This document shows, in pieces, positions 10,180 through 39,997 of a DNA stretch of 64,000 bases (position 1 is the stretch's first letter; every line of letters starts with the position of its first letter). Source of the DNA: a virus (lineage: Duplodnaviria; Heunggongvirae; Uroviricota; Caudoviricetes). Location: IMG/VR virus record IMGVR_UViG_3300034980_000290; one strand, given 5' to 3'. The notes beneath the pieces were generated by a model that was given only the letters and a program-made list of their open reading frames with translations, had not been told where the DNA came from and searched no databases. Both the position numbers and the translations under genes were made by a program.

Positions 10180-10322
10180 CGATATGTATGAGAATGCGCC
10201 CGGGGCCGTATAACTGTGGTGCGCGGCGGGGGGCACGGTGCCCGGCACTCCAAGGCCGGTAACATCACGCCCGCCCGCTTACCTTCCCCCCGGCGGCACG
10301 GTGTCGTCGGGGGACCAATCAA

Positions 10323-13827: not shown

Positions 13828-13889
13828 GGCATGGCGCTACAATATGTGACGCGGGGGCAGGCCAGGCCCAGCGTAGGAGACCATACGCC
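13828..13889 (+). promoter_or_regulatory. conserved promoter-leader cassette
   Basis: gcgCTACAATatg, gcgggggcaggccaggccc hairpin, gtaggagaccatacgccATG. Confidence 0.45.
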
Positions 13890-20100: not shown

Positions 20101-20197
20101 GGCGTCTTGTACGGAAACGCCGGTCTCACCTTGGTTTGTGCTACAATACGGTACGCAGGGGCCGCATTCCGCGGCCCCACCAACCAAGGAGACCACG
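20101..20197 (+). promoter_or_regulatory. conserved promoter-leader cassette with extended upstream box
   Basis: cttgtacggaaacgccggtctcaccttggtttgTGcTACAATacgg, ggggccgc-attcc-gcggcccc hairpin, ccaaggagaccacgcATG; upstream box also present at 21570. Confidence 0.5.
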
Positions 20198-21569: not shown

Positions 21570-21664
21570 CGTTGTACGGAAACGCTGGTCTGCCTTGGCA
21601 TGTGCTACAATACACTTGGCACGGCACGCGCAATCTTGCAGCGGGCCACGCCAGGAGACCACGC
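21570..21664 (+). promoter_or_regulatory. conserved promoter-leader cassette with extended upstream box
   Basis: gttgtacggaaacgctggtctgccttggcatgTGcTACAATacac ... gccaggagaccacgcATG. Confidence 0.5.
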
Positions 21665-22084: not shown

Positions 22085-22398
22085 ACAAGTGGAGCGACCA
22101 CTTTGACAACGATCGGGAGGCCGGTGGCGCTCCCGTCAAGACCGCCTACTCCATCATCGGCATGGCCATGCCCACCAACCCTGAGCGCGTGATGCTCATG
22201 GGCGGTCGTCTGCTGCGCGGGGAAGGACCCATGCAGGAAGACATCACGGACACCCTGGAGTGCATGAACGGGAACGCGTTCGTGGAGCGGCTGGGGTACG
22301 GCCTGGACGAGATTGGGTTGACGGAACACGGCGGCACGGCCCCGATCAGGGTCTACATGGCCCCAGGCGATGACGGCGGGTTCATCATCCTGGCATGA
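22081..22398 (+). CDS. hypothetical protein
   Basis: ATGA overlap; 105 aa; more plausible than track ORF 21760..22398 N-terminus. Confidence 0.4.
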   Translation: MNKWSDHFDNDREAGGAPVKTAYSIIGMAMPTNPERVMLMGGRLLRGEGPMQEDITDTLECMNGNAFVERLGYGLDEIGLTEHGGTAPIRVYMAPGDDGGFIILA

Positions 22399-22634
22399 TC
22401 TGCTTCAAGTGTCGTGTGCAAGATCAGTCTGCCACCCATGTGTGCCACAGGTGGGAAGAGGACGACTTAGCTGAGTGGAAGCCGAAAGACGGTGCCAAGT
22501 CTCGTCATGGTGTCATGTCAGGAGCAGTGGTGAGACTTATCACTCAGCAGAAGCACACAGACGGATCAACATGGTGGCAGACTGACCATCATGGAGTCAG
22601 GGTACCGGAGGCTGAACTCCACATCTGGGATTAG
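22395..22634 (+). CDS. Cys/His small protein
   Basis: 79 aa, CFKCRVQDQSATHVCH. Confidence 0.4.
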   Translation: MICFKCRVQDQSATHVCHRWEEDDLAEWKPKDGAKSRHGVMSGAVVRLITQQKHTDGSTWWQTDHHGVRVPEAELHIWD

Positions 22635-22639
22635 GCCAG

Positions 22640-23583
22640 TAGCATTGACACCCTCGATTGACAGTATCGTCAGCTGAACAGTCGCCAACGACACGACCAT
22701 AGGAAGACTTCATCTCTGTTCACAGATTCGTTCCCTACATAGGGGATAGGGGACCGAAAGACAGCTGAAGACTGACCACCACCCCCAGACGAAGAAGTGA
22801 AAGACACTGAGACCGATAGGTGCTCCAAGGGCCTACCTCCCCCTACCCCTGAGCCAGACCACAGAGAGACCAAGAGAGACAAGATAGAGCACCAGAGAGT
22901 ACATACTCCGTCTTGGAGTGAGATACGAGCGAGAGAGATTTTGCCTGTCTCATCTCTCTATTTCAGTCGTCCTTAGACGGATCCCGGCGTAGATCAGTAC
23001 GGATCCGCATATTCTTGGCATCTCGTTAGCCAGAAAAGTTCCTGTCTTATCCGGATCTCCGGAACAGATACAGATCTTGACACGGAAATAGATCTGGATC
23101 TGCATAGACAGAAAGATAACGAGAGATACGGATCCGCATAGATCAAGATCCTTTTGTCTACTTTTGCCTACCCTCGAGACACCCTCTCGACGGATAGACG
23201 GAAGTCACGGACCACAGATGTGCCCAGGAAGGTACTTCCCCTGCCCGTTCCGCACAGACGTGACCAGACTGACGCACTGCTGTGGGTAGGCCCATATATT
23301 CTTGGTGCCTTCTTGTGCGTTCTTAGCCCCTATCCTGCCCAGACGTGTTGCCTGCGGCCACCAGCGCCCACCACCTGGTCTGTGGTGGATCACAAGCCAT
23401 CAAAATCTCGTATCTCCAGAAGACTACAGATAGCGTGGGGTTCTGCAGATGAATCCGGATATCTACTTCTTGGGCTTCTACGGCATCTAACACGGAAGCT
23501 GTGGGGTATGTGGCACGTGTGCCGTATAATAGGGTACACACGCAACCAGTGGCACACGTGCCACATAACCAAGGAGCACACGC
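22640..23583. repeat. non-coding lower-GC region with AG-rich tract, GATC cluster and direct repeats (candidate origin/regulatory region)
   Basis: 10 GATC sites in 22977-23151; acggatccgcata x2; TTAGCCAGAAAAGTTCNTGTCTTATC copy 1 at 23022-23050 (copy 2 at 24483-24511). Confidence 0.5.
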
Positions 23584-23847
23584 ATGTCAATCAACAACAA
23601 CCTTACCCAACACCAACTCTTCCAGCTTGGCTACGCAGCCGCGCCGGAAGGGTGCAAGGAAGTCATCCGTAACGCAGAGCTGCTGAAGGCGCGAGGCAAC
23701 AAGCACACGCTGGCCCTGATGGCAGACGGCCAGCACGCGCTGGCCACACGGATGGGCGCAGAGCGGGACCAGTGCTGGCAGGCTGTGCGGCACATGGTCA
23801 TCACCCAAGACTGGAGCAATCTGGCAGGCAACCGCTACACACGGTAG
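23584..23847 (+). CDS. hypothetical protein
   Basis: 87 aa, directly after cassette ccaaggagcacacgcATG. Confidence 0.5.
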   Translation: MSINNNLTQHQLFQLGYAAAPEGCKEVIRNAELLKARGNKHTLALMADGQHALATRMGAERDQCWQAVRHMVITQDWSNLAGNRYTR

Positions 23848-23906
23848 TCATCCCAAAGGGGTGGGGCAGCCCACCCCTCCTGACCACACAAGGAGTGTTG
23901 CTACTA

Positions 23907-24080
23907 ATGGATCTCCGAAATATCCCTCTGTTAGCTCAGACAGAGGAAGCATGGCAAGCCCACCTTCGAATGATGGATGAGTTGCTTTTAGAGGTTGAAA
24001 GCGCAGTCCGAGCTATAGACCGCGCTGATAAGGTGGTTCATACCCGCCTGGAGCAGCTGAGCAAGGAGGAGTTGACATGA
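23907..24080 (+). CDS. small hypothetical protein (57 aa)
   Basis: caaggag RBS 23889-23895. Confidence 0.4.
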   Translation: MDLRNIPLLAQTEEAWQAHLRMMDELLLEVESAVRAIDRADKVVHTRLEQLSKEELT

Positions 24081-24172
24081 TGCCATTCATCGTGGCAGTG
24101 ATCGTGGGAGTGATCCTGGGTGCGGGATTGTGCGTGATAGACACACGCATCGGATCGGAGTACGACGCATGA
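24077..24172 (+). CDS. tiny membrane protein (31 aa)
   Basis: MMPFIVAVIVGVILGAGLCVI; ATGA overlaps. Confidence 0.25.
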   Translation: MMPFIVAVIVGVILGAGLCVIDTRIGSEYDA

Positions 24173-24375
24173 ACAGCAAGATCTTGAGCGGATGCGTGGT
24201 GGCAGGTCTACTCTTGGCCATGCTGGCCACGGAGTACAGATGGGCAGCGATGGTGGTCACAGGTCTGTGGTGCACGGCTGCGCTGGCCATCCTGATCGCT
24301 GCCGGGCTGTACGTGGCAGACAAGGAACAGGCGGAGAGAGGCATACAGAGCACAGATCAGTACCAGGATCTGTAG
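24169..24375 (+). CDS. small two-TM membrane protein
   Basis: MNSKILSGCVVAGLLLAMLA...LWCTAALAILIAAGLYV. Confidence 0.4.
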   Translation: MNSKILSGCVVAGLLLAMLATEYRWAAMVVTGLWCTAALAILIAAGLYVADKEQAERGIQSTDQYQDL

Positions 24376-24589
24376 CAGACAAACAAAGACAGCGTGTGAC
24401 TCCTACGGAGGTGAGGATTTGCGCCTTGGATGGGCGTACGTTCTCACCTCCATCTTAGCCACCTTTGGTCTAGAGGTGAATTCGTTAGCCAGAAAAGTTC
24501 GTGTCTTATCTAGATATCCAGACTGAGAGACTGAGAGAGACTGAGAGACTCTCGAACAATCCGAAAAACGTCTGTCTTGTCTGGGCTGG

Positions 24590-25365
24590 GAGAGCTGCGG
24601 CATTTTGCCGCAGCAGTGCGGCATTCTGCCGCACCCTACATCTTGTGGTGCGGCATTCTGCCACACCAGTGCGGCATTTTGCCGCGGCACGTATGGCACG
24701 GGATTTGTTTCGGCACGGGATTTGTTTCGGCACGGGATTTGTTTCGGCACGGCACGTGCCATGGCACGGGATTTGTTTCGGCACGGCACGTGCCATGGCA
24801 CGGCATGTGCTACGCGCGGGTGGTGCTAAAGAGAAACGGCATAATCCGGGTGTCCACTTTTGAGGACACGGGTGTCCACTTTTGGGGAATGGCACAAGTG
24901 CCTGCCACGGCGGCACTTATGGCATGGCACGTAGGAATTGAGGGTATTGAGTGTCCTCTTTTGAGGACACCCGGGTTTGTATGCAACGTCCGTGCCACAA
25001 GCGGCACAAAGTATTTTTCTGGCATAAGCGTATGGCATATATAGACTTATGGCATGGCACGTATGGTCCGTCCGTCCGTCCGTCCATCTGGCACGGCCGT
25101 TGCTCTATGATGGGTGTCGGTGGCACAAAGCCAGGGCGCAAGGCCCGTCGACCCCGAATAGGGTTTACAGTTTACGTCCGCACCATATGGCGCGGACATG
25201 CATGCAAGTAGCAGGCACGGATCGCACGCACACGCCATCGCCAACCGGGGAACCGGGACCACTCGCCATGGCATGCCACTCGGGTTCCGGTACTACTTGC
25301 ATGCATGTCCGTGCCGTACGGTGTGGGCATTTCAACGCAACACGCAAACGATAGGAGACACGCAA
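24590..25365. repeat. iteron/palindrome array (candidate replication origin or operator cluster)
   Basis: gcggcattYtgccgc inverted repeat x4 (24597-24685); 17-mer ggcacgggatttgtttc x4 (24695-24779); gtgtccacttttgaggacac palindromes (24848-24972); ttatggcatggcacgta x2; (gtcc)5 microsatellite near 25066-25085; pervasive GGCAC/GTGCC half-sites. Confidence 0.6.
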
Positions 25366-25366
25366 C

Positions 25367-26044
25367 ATGACACGCAAAAAGAACACGGACAAGGCGGCCC
25401 CGGTGGTCGAAGCGGCGGCCCCGGTGGTCGAAGCGGCGGCCCCGGAAGCGGCGGCACCCACGGCACCCACGGCGGCCCCGGTGGCGGCCCCGGTGGACGC
25501 GGCCCCCACGGTCCGCCCCATCACGTGGGACGATGACGCGGCCCCGCCCACCATGGCGGACCTTCGGACGGCGGCCAGTGCCGTCCGCACGGGTTCGGCG
25601 GGCTGGTGGTACATGCACGCGCCGGACGGCAAGTTCGGCAACGGTGGCAAGCGGTACACCCACCGTCTGGCCATCGTGGACGGCATCGGCGATGCCCTTC
25701 CGGACGGTACGCGCCCCATCAACGGCGTGCGCTTCGTCGGGTTGACCTTCGACGCGGACGGCACGGTTGACCCGGCCGGGTGCGCTTCGTGGGTGCCCTC
25801 GACACGCGACCCGGCCCATGCGCCCATGGTCAAGGCGGACGGTCGCACGGTGGCGGGTTTGCCCTCCACGGCGGGCAACGGTGGCCCCGCCCCGCAGTGC
25901 GCGGACACCCGGGGCGCGCGCATCACGCTGCACCCCAACGTGGACGCGGACGGCACCCCGACCATGGTGGTGTCCGGTGCCAAGGGGGGCGCGTACAGTC
26001 TCTCCGGCATCGTGGACGCGGACGGCACCCCGCTGGCACTGTGA
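25367..26044 (+). CDS. Pro/Ala-rich protein with W-YMHAP-FG-GG-RY motif (paralog of 12161..12688)
   Basis: cassette ataggagacacgcaacATG; 21-nt in-frame tandem repeat gcggccccggtggtcgaagcg x2; GWWYMHAPDGKFGNGGKRYTHRLAIVDG. Confidence 0.55.
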   Translation: MTRKKNTDKAAPVVEAAAPVVEAAAPEAAAPTAPTAAPVAAPVDAAPTVRPITWDDDAAPPTMADLRTAASAVRTGSAGWWYMHAPDGKFGNGGKRYTHRLAIVDGIGDALPDGTRPINGVRFVGLTFDADGTVDPAGCASWVPSTRDPAHAPMVKADGRTVAGLPSTAGNGGPAPQCADTRGARITLHPNVDADGTPTMVVSGAKGGAYSLSGIVDADGTPLAL

Positions 26045-26614
26045 AGGCGGTAGCGGCGGCCCTGCTTCTGGCATGGGCCGCCGCCCTCATCGGGGCCGGG
26101 GCCGCCATGGCCCGTGCCATGGTGGCCGTGGCACGTGACCCCGACCCTGACACGGACGGCGCCCCGTAAGGGGTGTGCAATCCTGCCACACCCCCACCTG
26201 TAGGGGGTGTGGCATCCTGCCACGGCACGGCGGCGGCACGGCACACCACAACATATGGTGTGTAAAGTTTGGTTTACCTACGACATTTTGTACCCCCCCC
26301 GGGGGTGCTTGCCGAGAGCGGCCAAGCTCATGACATTGAAGCCTCAAGCATCGAGAACCCGTTCGTGAGAGGTATGGTAGTGAACAAACCCCATCGGTGT
26401 TACTCGAAGAGATGACTGGTTACAGAGGTCATCTCAACCCGCCAGACCGGCAACAGACCAGAACAAACCCGAAAGGGCACATCGGCACCCAAAAACTCGT
26501 ACTTCGTAGCAGCGGCCAGCCACCGCACTCCAATCATGGCACAGGCGGCTTCGCCTCCCTGAACGCTGGTACGTTGGATAGGGGCCGCGTTTCAAAAATC
26601 TCGTAGGGGGTAAG

Positions 26615-28851: not shown

Positions 28852-29128
28852 ACTCAAAGGCGAAGTCACCATCACGACACACGATCATGCCAAGGCTCAC
28901 AAGCTGGTGCAGGCGTTGCGGATCCTCGGAGGTGGTGTCGTAACCCGTGCGCTCACAAAACTGGGCGTCCCGGCTGGTTCTCACATCAGCGGATGGAAGA
29001 CTGAGCACGAGCACCAAGATTTCCAGGTGATGGGCCAAGAAGAACCTCAACAAATACCCGGATGCATTCATATCACGGTTGAGTGGCAAAAAAGCCTCGC
29101 CGCACCTGAAAATGCGCGGGTCTGGTAA
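28844..29128 (+). CDS. hypothetical protein (TTG start, uncertain)
   Basis: no in-frame ATG; continuous frame after upstream stop. Confidence 0.2.
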   Translation: MTELKGEVTITTHDHAKAHKLVQALRILGGGVVTRALTKLGVPAGSHISGWKTEHEHQDFQVMGQEEPQQIPGCIHITVEWQKSLAAPENARVW

Positions 29129-29225
29129 AAACGGGCCTGTGTCTCGCCGTTTCTCGCCCTTCAACAACTTTTGTGGGCCATAGCATTACCTGCCGGGGCG
29201 CAGGAGAACGCCCAGCACACGCTAA

Positions 29226-29495
29226 ATGAGCAAAAAACGGGTGAAAATGGCCGAAAACCGGGTAACTCCACGAAGAATTGTCATGTGTACCCGCCATGGC
29301 TGCTGTCGGCGGTTCCTTTTGCCCGTCACACACTACGTAGGCCGTTGCCCCCACTGTTTCACCATTGTGCGCCCGGAAATACTGCCCGACCACGCGCAAA
29401 GAATCCCTTCCCGGTTCGTATGGTTTATGATAGGCGCGTGCTGTCTCATGGCCGTGTTGGTCGCAGGGACATGGCTCGCCAGAACAGTGGGGTAA
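29226..29495 (+). CDS. zinc-finger plus TM small protein
   Basis: CTRHGCC...CPHC then WFMIGACCLMAVLVAGTWLA. Confidence 0.3.
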   Translation: MSKKRVKMAENRVTPRRIVMCTRHGCCRRFLLPVTHYVGRCPHCFTIVRPEILPDHAQRIPSRFVWFMIGACCLMAVLVAGTWLARTVG

Positions 29496-29498
29496 CCC

Positions 29499-29894
29499 AT
29501 GAAACTTTCCTGCAAGCAGGACATGGCCGTGAAGGCATGTGTCCGTCTCGTTGAGTTCTATCCCAAGATGAGCAGCACCGAACAGGTAGCTGAGCTCGAG
29601 GTCTTCTCAGAAGCGCATCTTGGCCGGGTTTTTCGCCGTCTCGCCGTGGCGGGAATCGTGGAACTGGTGAGAGGCCGGAAAGGCGGTGTCAGGCTTGCGA
29701 AAGCGCCCGAAAAGGTGAATCTGGCCGAAATCATCCGCGCAATCGCCGATGACGCCATGATTGAAGCGAATGGGGGCAATCGGGGCCAAAAACGGCTGAA
29801 GGGGCTGTTCGATGTGCTCCAGGGCCGCCTGATGGCCGGGTTGGCGCAGGTGACCCTACAAGAGGTTGCTTCAAAAGATCTAATCCGCGTATAG
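29499..29894 (+). CDS. Rrf2-family transcriptional regulator
   Basis: N-terminal wHTH typical of Rrf2 (IscR/NsrR): MSSTEQVAELEVFSEAHLGRVFRRLAVAGIVELVRGRKGGVRLAKAPEKVNLAEIIRAI. Confidence 0.6.
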   Translation: MKLSCKQDMAVKACVRLVEFYPKMSSTEQVAELEVFSEAHLGRVFRRLAVAGIVELVRGRKGGVRLAKAPEKVNLAEIIRAIADDAMIEANGGNRGQKRLKGLFDVLQGRLMAGLAQVTLQEVASKDLIRV

Positions 29895-30132
29895 GGCGAT
29901 AGGGGGTGCCCGCGGAGGCCCGTACCTTCAACTTCTATTCCCATTCCCTTCTTCTTCGCGTGGTAGCCTCAGCGTTGCCGCGCATCCCGTTGATTCCCTG
30001 CGGGCCGAGATGTGCGGGTGCCCCCGCCTTTTCTCCAGGCCACGAACGCGGCGGGACCGTATAGTGCTATGATGGGGAGGGGCCTCGGCCCTTCTCGCGC
30101 TTCCCTGGCGCAACTTCCTGTAGCCCACGCTT

Positions 30133-30176
30133 CCGCCGCCTGTCGATGCTGGCCCGTCGACAGGCGGTCTTTTTTG
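30133..30176 (+). terminator. rho-independent terminator
   Basis: cctgtcgatgctggcccgtcgacagg stem then cggtcttttttgtg. Confidence 0.6.
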
Positions 30177-30334
30177 TGCCTGTCGTATGTATGGCGTGCG
30201 GTGCAGTACGATTGGCTGAATTTTTTGATTGTGCGGATTGTCTGGGGTGCACGCCCCAGGGAACGCCAACACGACTGCATTGCAAGAATCTTCTCAACCC
30301 TTGTGCGCTGGCGCGTTCAGGGGTTCTTTAGTGA

Positions 30335-30946
30335 GTGACCATGAGAACGCTACTGATCGCCCTTCTGCTGGCCGCCACTGCCACCGCGCAGGCCCCGAAC
30401 ATCATCGAGGAGGACTTGGGCACCGTCTTCCCCCTGACCAACTTCAGCATGACGGGGTACATGAACGCCCCATTCGGTGAGCACGACGCACCCATCTGTC
30501 CCGTCTTTGCGAAGAACGGAAAGGTGGAAGTCCATCTACCGGCACAGTACCCGCCGTACTTCGGAATCCCTGAATTGACGGCTTGTGTGCATTACGTCAG
30601 TGCTTGGCCCATTCCAGACGCCGGACAGCGCGGGATGGAGTTCAAGAAGGATGCTCAGGGCAAGGTGGTTGGCATTCGAGACCCGAATCCGGTCGCATGG
30701 GCACTCCCTCGCACTCACACTCTGTGGGGCTTTTGGGGCGGCCAGATGCCTATTTTTCGAAATGTCTTCGACGCGACCAACATGGAGACGGTTTTGCTGA
30801 TCAACATCAAGCGTTGGAAGCAAATCGTTCCCTATCCGCCTCAGCTGGTTGGAAATTCGTTCGCGATTCAGTGCTTCGTCATTTTCACGGATGCGTCGGG
30901 CACGAAACGGGGTTTCACCACCCTACCGGCCACGGTCCGCTTGTAG
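30335..30946 (+). CDS. secreted protein (signal peptide)
   Basis: MTMRTLLIALLLAATATAQA|P signal peptide. Confidence 0.5.
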   Translation: MTMRTLLIALLLAATATAQAPNIIEEDLGTVFPLTNFSMTGYMNAPFGEHDAPICPVFAKNGKVEVHLPAQYPPYFGIPELTACVHYVSAWPIPDAGQRGMEFKKDAQGKVVGIRDPNPVAWALPRTHTLWGFWGGQMPIFRNVFDATNMETVLLINIKRWKQIVPYPPQLVGNSFAIQCFVIFTDASGTKRGFTTLPATVRL

Positions 30947-31323
30947 GGGCTCGTATACCTGGGGGCCAAAGCACAAAAGCACCTTGAACCAGTTAGCGAC
31001 CGCCCTACGACACATGAATCTCTATTGCATAGCGGTTTTGGTTCAAATCACTCTAAGTACCGCAAATGCGCCTTACATCAAAGAAACCCAGGTATCGACA
31101 GCGGCGTAAGGACTTAGAAGCCCCAGTCTGCATAGCGCATAGCCCTACATCATAAAAAACCAACTCGTCGAGCGAGCGCCTTACCAGACAGAAACCCTGC
31201 GAAACAGCGCGCCAAGATGAACATCAACCTTGCAGACTACAGCGACGCAGAACAGTGGTTTCCGGGCCGTTTTTGGGCGCATAGTGGCATAGGCGGCAAC
31301 TGGGCCGCCAAGGAGAAGCGAAA

Positions 31324-33537: not shown

Positions 33538-34527
33538 ATGGCCAAGAAAAGCACCAAGAAATCTGCAGAGCCAGAGGCAGTGCAACAAGCGTGGAAACGC
33601 TACAAGTCCAGAGGTGCAAAGGGGGGACGGCAAGAGGATAGGGACATCATTGTTGGCCAGTACATGCAGCTCGTTCGCTACGCTGCGAACCATGCCTGGA
33701 AGACGCTGCCGAACAACATTGATGTTGAAGACCTGGTATCCACTGGGTTTTTTGGTCTTTTGGACGCGATTGAGGGTTTTGACCTCTCGCGCAAGATCAA
33801 GTTCAAGACCTACTGCATGATGCGCATTCGTGGCGCCATGCTTGACGGCCTTCGCCGAGAGGATTGGATACCCCGCCTCGTTCGCTTGAAGGCCAGCCAG
33901 CACCGCAAAGCCGCCAAGAACGTGATGGCCCGCACTGGCTTACCGCCAACCCAAGAAGAAATGGCTGACGAGCTCGGTCTCACCGAGATTGAGTATGCCA
34001 AGTTCAAAAAGGCGATGGGGGTCATTCATGTCTACCCCCTGTCAGACAAGTTTGAGGCTGGCACCAGCGGCGAAGGCGTTGATAAGATTGATGTCATCGC
34101 CGATCCCAAGTCTGCTGAACCCATTGTTGAGCTTGAATCTGCTGATGCTGTAGTGCACATCATGCGGTGCTTGACAGCGCGTGAGAAGCGCATTGTGATG
34201 ATGTACTACTACATGGGCTTCACGATGAAGCAGATCTCGGAAGCCTTGGATCTCACTGAATCTCGCGTTTGCCAGATACACTCAGCCTTCATTGAGCGGT
34301 TGAGGTGCATGATTGAAAGAGACGGGCTTGACAATGCCGAAATACCGCAAGGGCGAAATGATGACGCGGTGGGGGTCTGTCGGGCTGTTTTGCGTGACCT
34401 CAAATGGCGTGGTGAAGAACGACGGCGATCTGGTAATGGGAAGAGGAATGGCCGCTTTACTGAAAAAGAAGTGGCCGCAATCCGCAACCCTGGCGGGAGA
34501 GAAGGCGACGGCGTGGTACAAGGCTGA
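33538..34527 (+). CDS. sigma-70 family RNA polymerase sigma factor (FliA/sigma-28-like group)
   Basis: region 2 DLVSTGFFGLLDAIEGFD...YCMMRIRGAMLDGLRR; region 4 HTH LTAREKRIVMMYYYMGFTMKQISEALDLTESRVCQIHSAFIERLR; C-terminal 70 aa low-complexity and overlapping next gene. Confidence 0.7.
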   Translation: MAKKSTKKSAEPEAVQQAWKRYKSRGAKGGRQEDRDIIVGQYMQLVRYAANHAWKTLPNNIDVEDLVSTGFFGLLDAIEGFDLSRKIKFKTYCMMRIRGAMLDGLRREDWIPRLVRLKASQHRKAAKNVMARTGLPPTQEEMADELGLTEIEYAKFKKAMGVIHVYPLSDKFEAGTSGEGVDKIDVIADPKSAEPIVELESADAVVHIMRCLTAREKRIVMMYYYMGFTMKQISEALDLTESRVCQIHSAFIERLRCMIERDGLDNAEIPQGRNDDAVGVCRAVLRDLKWRGEERRRSGNGKRNGRFTEKEVAAIRNPGGREGDGVVQG

Positions 34528-34844: not shown

Positions 34845-34895
34845 TGGTGGCACGTGTGCCGTATAAGGGTGCAGGCACAAAACCAAAGGCACAAC
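34845..34895 (+). promoter_or_regulatory. conserved promoter-leader cassette (GCCGTATAAG variant)
   Basis: gtggcacgtgtGCCGTATAAGggtg. Confidence 0.4.
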
Positions 34896-35423
34896 ATGCA
34901 AAACCCTCGCGCAAAGTACAAGGAACTGGCCGATTTGGCCGAGATCCCCACCACAGGCGGCGTCATGCTCAAGATGGGCGTTGACGTTTGTCTCTCGCCC
35001 ACCTGCCCGAACGCGCCGAAAGAGCAGCCGGAAGCCGTCGAAGAGGAGTCCAAGTGGCGTCCCGAGCGCCGTGGGCTCTGTCGTGCTTGCTACGCGGCCA
35101 TGATTCGAGACAAGCCTGAAACCGGCCCTGAGAGCTTCATCCCCTTCGAGAACGAAGGCCGGTGCCTTCCTCGCAACTTCGGCGGCAACAAGCCCCCAAT
35201 CCGCAAGGCACGCACGCCTGTCACGCCAGCATGGATGCAGGTGGCCTTGGGCACTGCCGCAGCCGTCCCGGCCGAGATGGCGGCTCCGGCGCCCGCTCCG
35301 GCGCCCGCTCCGGCGCCCGCTCCGGCGCCCACGGTCCCGATCGACTTCAGCGGCGACGCGGCCGAGTCCACAGCGGGCGGGGATGACCTGGACCGGCTGT
35401 TGAACACCGAAGTGGGCGAGTAG
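34896..35423 (+). CDS. zinc-ribbon protein with (AP)7 linker
   Basis: CLSPTCPN...CRACY; 12-nt tandem repeat gctccggcgccc x4 at 35283-35330 encoding APAPAPAPAPAPAP. Confidence 0.5.
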   Translation: MQNPRAKYKELADLAEIPTTGGVMLKMGVDVCLSPTCPNAPKEQPEAVEEESKWRPERRGLCRACYAAMIRDKPETGPESFIPFENEGRCLPRNFGGNKPPIRKARTPVTPAWMQVALGTAAAVPAEMAAPAPAPAPAPAPAPAPTVPIDFSGDAAESTAGGDDLDRLLNTEVGE

Positions 35424-35426
35424 TAC

Positions 35427-36392
35427 ATGCCGACAAAGACAACCAAGAAAACCGCCAAGAAGGCGCGAAAGAAGCGTACGCCCAAGGTCAAGCACGACCC
35501 GGTGTACGATCGCAATCTCCTCAAGCAGCTCGTGAGAACGTGCTATGACCTTCAGGAGAAGAGGATGGCCCATGGGCAGCGCCAGAAGGCCCTTGCCCAC
35601 CGTGGAATGCCAGAGCTCAACGAAAGCGACACAGGCGCCTTCGCCGAAATCTTCGGCGGCTTCAAAGACGTTGAAAGGCTCATCGAGAAGCAGATCCATA
35701 AGGTGCTGAAGAGGTTCCCAATCTGGACCAAGTGGTTGGACGAAGTCACAGGTGTTGGCCCAATGATGGGCGGCATCATCGTGAGCAAGTTCGACCCCTA
35801 CGACGCACCAGCCCCTGAAGGCTACGGGGTTGAACACGCTGGTGCCTATGAAGGCAAGTACCTGTTCCGTGAGTGCATTGACAAGGAGAAGGACACCTGG
35901 AATGTTGAGGAGCGCGAGTGCATCATGCGCCAGCGCACCGTCAGCCAGTTTTGGGCGTACTCCGGACTCCACACCATCGAGGTCGATGACAAGGAGGGTG
36001 GCAGGAAGCGTGTGGCGGCGCGGCAGGTAGCTGGGAAGCAGGGCAACTACGAGACATGGCTCAGGGCCAAGCTGTTGGGTGTCCTGGGTGACATCATGAT
36101 CAAGGGAGGCAGCCCGTACAAGAGGTACTACGACGAATGCAAGAAGCGTCGTATAGCCATGGGCTGGGGCACGACCGACATGCACCGGCACAAGGACGCC
36201 AAGCGGCACATGATGAAGTGTTTCATCATGGACCTCTACGTGCAGTGGCGTACGGTGCTTGACCTTCCGGTCAGGGCACCGTACGCCCTTGCAAAGATGG
36301 GGTTGTCCCCGGCGCAAGCGTTCCATGTAGAGGAACACCCAGGGTGGAACAGAAAGGACGCCGCTGAGGCGGCAGCAGCAGCAAATGGATGA
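35427..36392 (+). CDS. basic protein with helix-hairpin-helix region resembling IS110-transposase C-terminal (Transposase_20-like) domain; no DEDD nuclease domain seen
   Basis: Lys-rich N-term; VTGVGPMMGGIIVSKFDPYD and QFWAYSGLHTIEVDDKEGGRK...GNYETWLRAKLLGVLGDIM...YKRYYDECKKRR pattern. Confidence 0.35.
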   Translation: MPTKTTKKTAKKARKKRTPKVKHDPVYDRNLLKQLVRTCYDLQEKRMAHGQRQKALAHRGMPELNESDTGAFAEIFGGFKDVERLIEKQIHKVLKRFPIWTKWLDEVTGVGPMMGGIIVSKFDPYDAPAPEGYGVEHAGAYEGKYLFRECIDKEKDTWNVEERECIMRQRTVSQFWAYSGLHTIEVDDKEGGRKRVAARQVAGKQGNYETWLRAKLLGVLGDIMIKGGSPYKRYYDECKKRRIAMGWGTTDMHRHKDAKRHMMKCFIMDLYVQWRTVLDLPVRAPYALAKMGLSPAQAFHVEEHPGWNRKDAAEAAAAANG

Positions 36393-38801: not shown

Positions 38802-39509
38802 GTGGCATCACGCCCAGGAGCTGAGGGTGCGAGCCCCCCGCCAGAGGTTCTCCCGGTCAGTCCGGTTGTAGAACCAGCGGTCAAACCGCGGAGCCAAATG
38901 GAGCAGGTTGTCAAGATCTGCTCCGAAGACTGCACCTTCATCAAGCACGCCGGGCGGGGCAAGCCCAAGGGCTGCGAGTGGTTCCAGCGCAAGCAGGTCA
39001 AATACAAAGACCCTTGCAAGCACGACCTTGAGATGATCAATGGCTTCGTGCAGGCCCACAAAGACGGCAACCTTGACCACGTGAAGGAAACGGTCGGCGG
39101 AGTGGTGGGCTCCATGATGCTCAAGCTGTACGAGATGCTTGCCATCATCGGTGACCAGGGAATGATCCACAAGGAGCCTATCCTTGATGGCAAGGGCATG
39201 GTCATCATGCTTGATGGCGAGGTGGCCTTCAGGTTGGTAGAGCACCCGCTCCTGACCAAAGTGGTCACTATGGCCCGTGCTATCGGCTTCGATCTCAGCA
39301 AGTTCAAGCTGACCCCCGGGGCCTCCGGGGATGCTCCAAAGGCGGCAGGCAACATCCTGTTGCATACTGAGGGGCCAGTGACCCTCCAACAGATTGTTGA
39401 CCAGAACGCGGCTAAGATCGCCGAGTTTGAGGTTCAGGCAGCTACGGCCAGGAAGAACCTCGAGGAAGACCCGGTGTACCAGGAAATGAAGGGCGACCAA
39501 GTAATATGA
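38802..39509 (+). CDS. hypothetical protein
   Basis: 235 aa. Confidence 0.45.
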   Translation: MASRPGAEGASPPPEVLPVSPVVEPAVKPRSQMEQVVKICSEDCTFIKHAGRGKPKGCEWFQRKQVKYKDPCKHDLEMINGFVQAHKDGNLDHVKETVGGVVGSMMLKLYEMLAIIGDQGMIHKEPILDGKGMVIMLDGEVAFRLVEHPLLTKVVTMARAIGFDLSKFKLTPGASGDAPKAAGNILLHTEGPVTLQQIVDQNAAKIAEFEVQAATARKNLEEDPVYQEMKGDQVI

Positions 39510-39997
39510 GGCTGAGGGGAGTCAGCAACCGGGTTGCCCGTCGGATCAAAGCACACGAGACAACCGTGGCGATGATCGCGAAAGAGGTGTTTGCCGAGAT
39601 CGTTGCCGTCCTGGAGTCAGAAGAGCCGGTGGCTATTGAAGGCTTCGGGGAGTTCTACTTTCAGTATCGAGACTACGATCCCAAGATCGCTTGCCGCCCT
39701 GAAGTTGACCCGAAAGAGATGGGGCACATCAAGTACCGACGGGTAGCTTTCAGGCCGATCGGTTATGTGCGGGAGCTGTTGAATCGGAAGTGTCACAGTA
39801 TCGGGGTAAGGAGCAGCAAGGCTTCCGACTTACGGGCCGGTGGGCTGGCTGCGGCAGAAATCCCAAAGCTTCGAGAAGAGGTCAACAAGGCCCAGCTCGA
39901 CATGCGGTTGAAGCTCAGGCGTATGCGGGGTGACACGACCATGGCTGAAGTGGCCACCAATCTTAGCTTCGCAATCGATGAAATGACCGAGGAGTGA
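39506..39997 (+). CDS. HU/IHF-like DNA-binding protein, putative
   Basis: IAKEVFAEIVAVLESEEPVAIEGFGEFYF...RVAFRPIGYVRELL resembles HU fold (GFG.F arm). Confidence 0.35.
   Translation: MRLRGVSNRVARRIKAHETTVAMIAKEVFAEIVAVLESEEPVAIEGFGEFYFQYRDYDPKIACRPEVDPKEMGHIKYRRVAFRPIGYVRELLNRKCHSIGVRSSKASDLRAGGLAAAEIPKLREEVNKAQLDMRLKLRRMRGDTTMAEVATNLSFAIDEMTEE

Follow-up and report, generated by a model that had tools for sequence, protein, structure and literature searches.

A non-coding island with a GATC-box core

The window analysed here is a 64,000-nt stretch from the genome of a phage (Caudoviricetes; IMG/VR record IMGVR_UViG_3300034980_000290), and at positions 22640-23583 it contains a gene-free stretch that we call the island. 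The island carries a core dense in GATC sites, a 41-nt element placed inside this core and, at its right end, a phage promoter/operator. It is followed by a mini-operon of four small genes and then by the next gap, from 24376, which we call island 2. The island is not a gene but a cis-acting control region of composite structure, and its GATC-box core is most likely a protein-binding platform, either of origin type or for a regulator.

The non-coding status of the island, its lower GC content, a purine-rich tract, a direct repeat and ten clustered GATC sites where fewer than one is expected had all been proposed in a first-pass annotation, and all of them hold. Codon-usage scores are negative for every open reading frame (ORF) of at least 30 aa within the island, whichever the strand, whereas the neighbouring small genes score positive. 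The island shows no frame-specific signal in GC content at third codon positions (GC3), and an independent gene caller leaves 22398-23583 empty in a Logan contig. A coding gene or a pseudogene inside the island is thus ruled out by the negative scores on both strands and the missing GC3 signal. Just upstream, a 79-aa ORF on the plus strand (22395-22634) is doubtful: its codon score is -2.5, against +4 to +46 for the neighbouring small genes. Its ATG shares bases with the upstream stop codon (ATGA), no gene was called there in the Logan contig, and it has no Pfam or PHROG match. Consequently, the gap may measure 1186 nt and not 944.

The drop in GC content is stronger than had been claimed. It reaches 39% at 23066-23165 and 45.5% at 22959-23158, against about 58% overall, and nowhere else in the window is GC content, at the 100-, 200- and 300-bp scales, as low as in the GATC core. 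At 39-46% GC, the core contains no AT repeats of the 13-mer type. The ten GATC sites (22980, 22992, 23002, 23054, 23073, 23091, 23097, 23131, 23141 and 23147) span 171 bp (22980-23150), a length for which 0.62 sites are expected from base composition or 0.94 from the observed density. GATC is neither avoided nor globally selected in the genome (observed/expected 0.85 under a Markov model). The window holds 362 sites in total (5.7 per kb), and its next-densest 200-bp segment has 6. The Poisson probability of the cluster is 6.6e-8, or about 0.004 once corrected for a 64-kb scan, although the ten sites are not independent events, because they sit in repeated boxes.

GATC is the invariant core of a repeated degenerate box. 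The boxes are 12-18 bp long and irregularly spaced. Those on the left (22975-23011) carry three GATC sites in the arrangement ACGGATCC..GCGTAGATCA..TACGGATCCGCATA, and the last of these sequences is the direct repeat, present at 22998 and again at 23127. Those on the right (23064-23150) carry six sites in degenerate units of about 17 nt (ACAGATACAGATCTTGA, ACGGAAATAGATCTGGA and AGAGATACGGATCCGCA). A purine precedes GATC in 10/10 sites, and 8/10 fit RGATCY (p = 4.7e-4), with a mixture of the hexamers GGATCC, AGATCT, AGATCA, GGATCT and AGATCC. The information content of the GATC flanks is 14.5 bits, compared with 11.7 +/- 0.6 for random sets of GATC sites.

Folded as DNA, the segment 22930-23200 has a z-score of -4.15, and the fold z-scores of the island are equally low on both strands. 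This symmetry, together with the DNA fold, points to DNA palindromes (GGATCC three times, AGATCT and TCCGGA twice each) and not to RNA. In searches against Rfam 15, no match in the window reached the gathering score and the GATC-box core had no match at E up to 1. The sole island matches at that level are two sub-threshold matches to microRNA models, located on the inverted repeat of the promoter (23505-23569). No RNA fold is common to both copies of the 41-nt element (3 pairs predicted, -1.2 kcal/mol). As the island is non-coding, has no Rfam family and its element has no conserved RNA fold, it is expected to act at the DNA level. Scans of the island for sigma-70-type promoters and intrinsic terminators gave nothing above shuffled sequences, and a tRNA search returned nothing.

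The element had been described as a 29-bp sequence recurring at 24483. The recurrence is real, whereas the length is not: TTAGCCAGAAAAGTTCnTGTCTTATC, as written, has 26 nt, and its two occurrences are at 23026 and 24485. There is no third copy in the window at up to 3 mismatches, and none is expected by chance. The similarity extends to 41 nt (23023-23063 and 24482-24522, both on the plus strand) at 88% identity and includes a perfect 19-mer. Copy 1 (TCGTTAGCCAGAAAAGTTCCTGTCTTATCCGGATCTCCGGA) contains one GATC site and two TCCGGA palindromes, and is followed by the tandem repeats (ACAGAT)2 and AGATCTGGATCT. Copy 2 heads island 2, is followed by (GAGAGACT)3 and has no GATC boxes around it. It is flanked by 2 of the 4 CTAG sites of the window, a pair within 40 bp that would arise by chance with p = 0.008. 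Both copies are flanked by palindromic hexamers, GGATCC and TCCGGA at copy 1 and TCTAGA twice at copy 2. The two co-oriented copies lie 1459 bp apart and bracket the promoter, the four small genes and a strong hairpin that stands between these genes and copy 2. By eye, the element was also considered as an ECF-type or a sigma-28-type promoter on either strand and rejected, given that the spacing does not fit and a variable base breaks GGAAC.

Islands 1 and 2 share three motif types, namely the 41-nt element, 10-bp GAGAGAC repeats and TGTCT. GAGAGAC has 5/7 of its window copies within the two islands (p = 9e-7). The array of island 2 (24596-24813) is composed of four GCGGCAYTYTGCC palindromes followed by seven GGCACGG at 17-nt spacing, which makes it the densest repeat cluster of the window. 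Its 34-nt periodicity (0.74 identity at lag 34) also exceeds any other in the window. Island 2 contains in addition 22-mers and a long hairpin (25193-25310), which has perfect 18-bp arms (GGACATGCATGCAAGTAG / CTACTTGCATGCATGTCC) with nested palindromes inside and stands just upstream of a gene of high GC content (25367-26044).

The right end of the island is a phage promoter/operator (23510-23564, plus strand). A -10-like sequence, GCCGTATAA(T), at 23521-23530 is flanked by inverted GGCACGTGTGCC operators, GTGGCACGTGTGCC at 23510-23523 and GGCACACGTGCCAC at 23551-23564, and the inverted repeat has a z-score of -4.4. The window has four copies of GCCGTATAA, all of them intergenic and on the plus strand, whereas 0.05 copies are expected. 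The broader -10 motif GCCGTATA(A/G) is found at 10205, 15638 (the copy with G as last base), 17820, 23521 and 34858, and also before the start of the window, at L087 4583. All these copies are intergenic and on the plus strand, and many have GGCAC palindromes nearby. Moreover, the 20-mer GTGGCACGTGTGCCGTATAA of the 23510 promoter recurs at 34847. The -10 consensus of sigma-28 (FliA/WhiG) promoters is GCCGATAA. GCCGTATAA resembles it but carries one inserted base, and a TAAA -35 element about 15 nt upstream is not common to the five aligned upstream regions. A FliA-family sigma is likewise encoded by the phage, at 33538-34527 (plus strand), with Sigma70 regions 2 and 4 and matches to WhiG/FliA structures at E = 6e-46; proteins of the FliA/WhiG family match it at 45-50% identity. 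This factor presumably reads the GCCGTATAA promoters. Downstream of the island promoter, an AAGGAG ribosome-binding site and the ATG of an 87-aa gene (23571-23586, plus strand) open the mini-operon (23584-24375), whose genes encode proteins of 87, 57, 31 and 68 aa, the last two membrane-like. A structure model of the 87-aa protein is helical and of low confidence (pLDDT 54), and is not usable.

The remainder of the island consists of spacers. The left one (22635-22930) is purine-rich and unstructured, with an RNA fold z-score of about 0; it contains two ATAGGGG (22739-22753) and the purine-rich tract, formed by AGAGAGAC repeats with a 10-bp period (22862-22899). A weak hairpin on the plus strand (22931-22959; arms AGAGAGAT / ATCTCTCT, -11.9 kcal/mol) is not convincing as a terminator, given its z-score of -1.1. 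The right spacer (23151-23500) is pyrimidine-rich, starts with two CTTTTGYCTA and is otherwise featureless, as it holds no repeat and no ORF with a coding score.

A possible origin-type module or regulatory array

Tentatively, we favour reading the core as an origin-type module that combines iterons with easily melted DNA. The core (22975-23150) would be a platform for DNA-binding proteins in which seven or eight GATC boxes of 12-18 bp flank the 41-bp element, and it would be the most easily melted point of the 64-kb window. The boxes would bind an initiator and the adjoining low-GC DNA would open. The operator-flanked promoter would drive the four-gene mini-operon downstream of the core, and the second 41-bp copy would head a 1-kb island packed with iterons and palindromes. 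We infer protein binding, melting and initiation of replication at the core from its position at the GC minimum, the cluster that is significant in the scan, the boxes with invariant GATC, the hairpin potential of the DNA and the motifs shared with island 2. The 17-nt tandem iterons and GCGGCAYTYTGCC palindromes next door and the operator-flanked promoter between the islands are counted on the same side.

Several observations weigh against an origin. The AT-richness of the core is modest in absolute terms (61% AT at most), the GATC excess is partly mere duplication of boxes, and helical phasing of the GATC spacing is not significant. DnaA boxes (TTATCCACA-like, up to 1 mismatch) are absent from the island, and the window contains 6 of them where 7.7 are expected. 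No replication initiator or DNA methyltransferase was recognised in the ORFs scanned between -9.4 kb and +64 kb, nor any helicase, primase, polymerase or initiator within 32 kb upstream and 18 kb downstream of the island. GC skew had been suggested as a check, and the cumulative curve takes no turn at the island; this is weak evidence, since every gene is on one strand. Finally, relatives of the phage are absent from every collection searched. Neither island matches GenBank phages or PLSDB plasmids (megablast and blastn), exact-pattern scans of viral, metagenome and genome contigs for the 41-nt element gave zero matches, and locus searches anchored on four flanking proteins found no relatives. 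The 87-aa protein has zero homologues among 5.8 billion proteins. The best homologues of the thymidylate synthase of the phage are 59-62% identical and belong to unrelated, non-syntenic phages.

The first-pass annotation had linked the cluster to Dam/SeqA-controlled origins and, in more guarded terms, to phage regulatory or partition sites. The guarded part agrees with the AT-rich, repeat-dense, non-coding module with promoter and operator described above, while a Dam/SeqA-controlled origin is unsupported. Every named homologue among the listed best hits of the sigma factor (40-50% identity) is from Planctomycetota, so that the host probably belongs to this phylum, as far as sequence similarity can tell, and SeqA is implausible in it. 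To our knowledge, SeqA is confined to some Gammaproteobacteria. Involvement of SeqA is thus very unlikely. A role of adenine methylation at the GATC sites is possible and is not needed for an origin-type core; a literature search on GATC methylation in Planctomycetes yielded nothing beyond anecdotal data.

The closest known arrangement is the replicon of plasmid P1, in which an oriR with five GATC-bearing 7-mers is followed by incC iterons, repA and incA iterons. As in P1 and in E. coli oriC, the GATC sites here are clustered, lie in short repeats and occupy that end of a non-coding region which melts easily. As in P1, the GATC end is followed by an operator-flanked promoter and a gene (autoregulated in P1), and then by a second array of repeats. 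However, the island differs from both systems in having no DnaA boxes and no recognisable Rep protein, in that the following gene encodes only 87 aa, and in a host that is probably a planctomycete without SeqA. Besides, the repeats that match the operators here (GGCAC) differ from the GATC boxes. In the chromosome-2 origin of Vibrio cholerae, RctB binds 11- and 12-mers that each contain a GATC that must be methylated. The island resembles it in that GATC is the invariant part of a degenerate box repeat, but it has no RctB-like gene and its boxes are less regular.

Nearly as likely as the origin module is an array that binds a regulator or forms a loop. The GATC boxes, like both 41-bp elements, would be operators of a phage regulator, for which the 87-aa protein, an Rrf2-family regulator (29499-29894, plus strand; best PDB match E = 1e-9) and a HU/IHF-like DNA-binding protein (39506-39997, plus strand) could be considered; the last two are candidate binders of the repeat arrays. 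The two elements could loop and repress the mini-operon between them, as in phage lambda, where the OL and OR operator sets are 2.4 kb apart and loop, with methylation-sensitive binding as an option. Such a role would suit an island that lies between co-directional operons and ends in a promoter/operator. It would also suit its place beside regulator genes (Rrf2, FliA-type sigma), at the head of a cluster of six long gaps that extends from 22.4 to 31.3 kb; the island is not, as had been stated, the only long gene-free stretch of the region. A promoter, four genes and a strong hairpin lie between the two elements, which point the same way, and the palindromic hexamers at both copies also fit operators. 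However, neither the boxes nor the element contain TGCTACAAT, GCCGTATAA or a sigma-70-like pair, so that both promoter types of the phage are missing from the core. The operators that can be assigned to promoters are the GGCAC palindromes and not the GATC boxes, and the nearest promoter is 460 nt downstream of the core. No protein that would bind there was recognised, the 87-aa protein having neither a homologue nor a confident model. Unlike lambda, the phage has no repressor homologue and no divergent promoters at the island, and each side carries one element instead of three operators.

It is rather unlikely that the island has no dedicated function and represents decayed coding DNA with low complexity made by slippage, the promoter at 23510-23564 alone being functional. 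The lack of a homologue, of a structure family and of a recognisable protein partner would agree with this, as would the segments 22635-22930 and 23172-23500, which are counted as being without any feature, and a GATC statistic that weakens once repeated boxes are counted once. Against it, the 41-nt element is kept at 88% identity in two places only, with its perfect 19-mer, and both RGATCY and GAGAGAC are enriched. CTAG sites have been kept here although the genome is nearly free of them (4 in the window, 75 expected), and GC content reaches its lowest value of the window in the core.

A remnant of a mobile cassette is an unlikely origin of this arrangement. The 41-bp elements would then be recombination repeats of the kind found in the PeSL cassettes of T4-type phages, placed around an inserted "moron" (promoter, four genes and terminator), and the GATC boxes would be slippage products of low complexity with no function of their own. 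As in PeSL cassettes, a repeated intergenic element and a nearby stem-loop flank small ORFs. The direct repeats surround a self-contained unit that has its own promoter and closes with a strong hairpin, both elements are followed by short tandem repeats, and 2/4 genes encode small membrane proteins, as morons often do. However, PeSL-type elements are multi-copy and only two copies exist here, no promoter is recognisable in the element, and the stem-loop before copy 1 is weak. The invariant GATC core with varying flanks argues for selection on the sites.

A packaging site of the P1 type, with seven TGATCA/G hexamers in two groups on either side of the terminase cut and cleavage gated by Dam, is very improbable. 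The bipartite layout is alike, in that the central element has 3 GATC sites on its left and 6 on its right (as in P1, two groups enclose a central segment of about 40-90 bp), and a large genome whose three assemblies break at the same place leaves the mode of packaging open. Nevertheless, the island lies 18 kb upstream of the large terminase gene (TerL, 41096), the common assembly ends are elsewhere (near -44.5 kb and +67.7 kb), the hexamers are more varied than those of P1, and GATC boxes are missing from the second copy of the central element.

A Tas protein and a guide-like array in island 2

An ORF at 35427-36392 (plus strand, 321 aa) passes the NCBIfam cut-off for TIGR-Tas RNA-guided effectors (E = 1.3e-32, 113.5 bits against 100). 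It aligns to the Nop-domain part of PDB 9mty, and about 65 residues precede the domain, which leaves no room for a nuclease; the protein is therefore TasA-like. TasA has been reported as an RNA-guided repressor (bioRxiv 10.64898/2026.09.09.750476). The tas gene is in an operon behind the GTGGCACGTGTGCCGTATAAG promoter at 34847, which is where the 20-mer of the island promoter recurs. A ParB-like identity of the gene upstream of tas is unsupported.

The rules for TIGR arrays were re-implemented from PMC12045711 and bioRxiv 10.64898/2026.09.09.750476. By these rules, no canonical array is present anywhere in the window, and the island contains no chain or stem-loop unit. The only periodic non-coding array, at 24693-24813 in island 2, fits the 8+9+8+9 geometry loosely. 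Its minus strand can be divided into 8-nt repeats, CGTGCCGA and CGTGCCAT, separated by 9-nt inserts, of which there are three types only, and the alternation is imperfect. Taken as 10-nt inserts, GATTTGTTTC occurs four times, CACGTGCCAT twice and CATGTGCTAC once. Insert CACGTGCCA matches exactly the operators at 23511, 23555 and 34848, insert CATGTGCTAC matches exactly the -10 region of an early promoter at 21599, and insert GATTTGTTT has no second target in the window. The array may consist of protein iterons or may be a degenerate guide array of TIGR-like type. As protein-binding iterons explain the same facts, the guide-array idea stays a low-probability lead.

It is tempting to propose that both islands work as a single control hub, through DNA sites acting together with guide RNAs made by the phage, although we consider this quite improbable. 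The array at 24693-24813 would be a degenerate guide array for the nuclease-less Tas, its inserts targeting the GCCGTATAA operators and the -10 region of the early promoter. The module of GATC boxes and 41-bp element would be a DNA-level switch (an origin or a methylation-sensitive site) timed by this circuit. If true, it would be a natural case of a phage regulating its own promoters through TIGR-Tas.

That the island itself is a non-coding RNA locus, encoding a small RNA, guide RNAs for the phage TIGR-Tas or an RNA that acts in antitermination like nut and put, is very doubtful. The two co-oriented copies stand downstream of operons, like nutL/nutR of lambda and putL/putR of HK022, and guide arrays for Tas proteins are placed flexibly around the gene (bioRxiv 10.64898/2026.09.09.750476). 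Nevertheless, the absence of an Rfam match at threshold, the strand-symmetric fold z-scores, which point to DNA palindromes, and the lack of a common structure in the two copies argue against it, and the GATC boxes do not fit the TIGR geometry (box C, 9-nt spacer, box D).

Genome context and further observations

The phage genome is about 112 kb long. One phage is represented by a contig from JGI (112,629 bp), one from ENA (ERZ27248688 k141_471403, 112,310 bp, on which window position x corresponds to 67766 - x) and two from Logan, with at least 99.9% identity, and all assemblies end near -44.5 kb and +67.7 kb relative to the window. A single substitution (position 22842) distinguishes them within the island. 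The breaks of the Logan contigs at 24724 and 25416 are ruled out as genome ends, as a 17-bp tandem repeat and a 21-bp coding tandem repeat explain both. Recognisable genes are all on the plus strand. They include in the window a capsid protein, a tape-measure-like protein, the thymidylate synthase, a Band-7 protein and TerL, which is 30% identical to that of a Microcystis siphovirus.

Phages of Planctomycetota are almost unknown, and an origin or master control region would be a first handle on their replication and gene timing. The island might also yield a replicon for a phylum with few genetic tools. Taken alone, it belongs to an ordinary type, that of intergenic control regions rich in repeats, and has no assignable protein partner. 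Its value comes mostly from the surrounding genome, with a FliA-type sigma and its own promoter class, a 7-deazaguanine pathway and a TIGR-Tas gene near candidate guide-like repeats.

The 7-deazaguanine pathway is complete. QueD, a QueE-like protein, QueC, GTP cyclohydrolase I (FolE) and QueF are encoded upstream of the window (L087 4867-9310), and a DpdA-like transglycosylase is encoded at 1249-2271 of the window. Guanines of the phage DNA are probably modified through this pathway, which could alter the reading of GATC sites. Besides CTAG, the window avoids GCCGGC (0 observed, 25 expected), GGGCCC (0 and 24), AGTACT (0 and 10) and TTAA (4 and 16).

A second class of promoters, with the extended -10 sequence TGCTACAAT, is present at 13836, 16921, 20140 and 21604. 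The copies at 20140 and 21604 have about 60 nt of upstream sequence in common, including a GCGTTGTACGGAAACGC hairpin.

The long intergenic regions that follow the island are 24376-25366 (991 nt), which is island 2, 26045-26614 (570 nt), 28852-29498 (647 nt), 29895-30340 (446 nt) and 30947-31323 (377 nt). The last four have no repeats in common with the islands, and 26040-26280 is strongly palindromic (z about -3.5 on both strands). The plus-strand gene at 25367-26044 has 75-83% GC, against 58% in the genome, and its Ala/Pro-rich N-terminus derives from the 21-bp tandem repeat (25393-25445) that breaks the Logan assemblies at 25416. Another coding tandem repeat, at 35283-35330, is composed of four copies of the 12-bp unit GCTCCGGCGCCC, and two samples of this phage differ in it by one unit.

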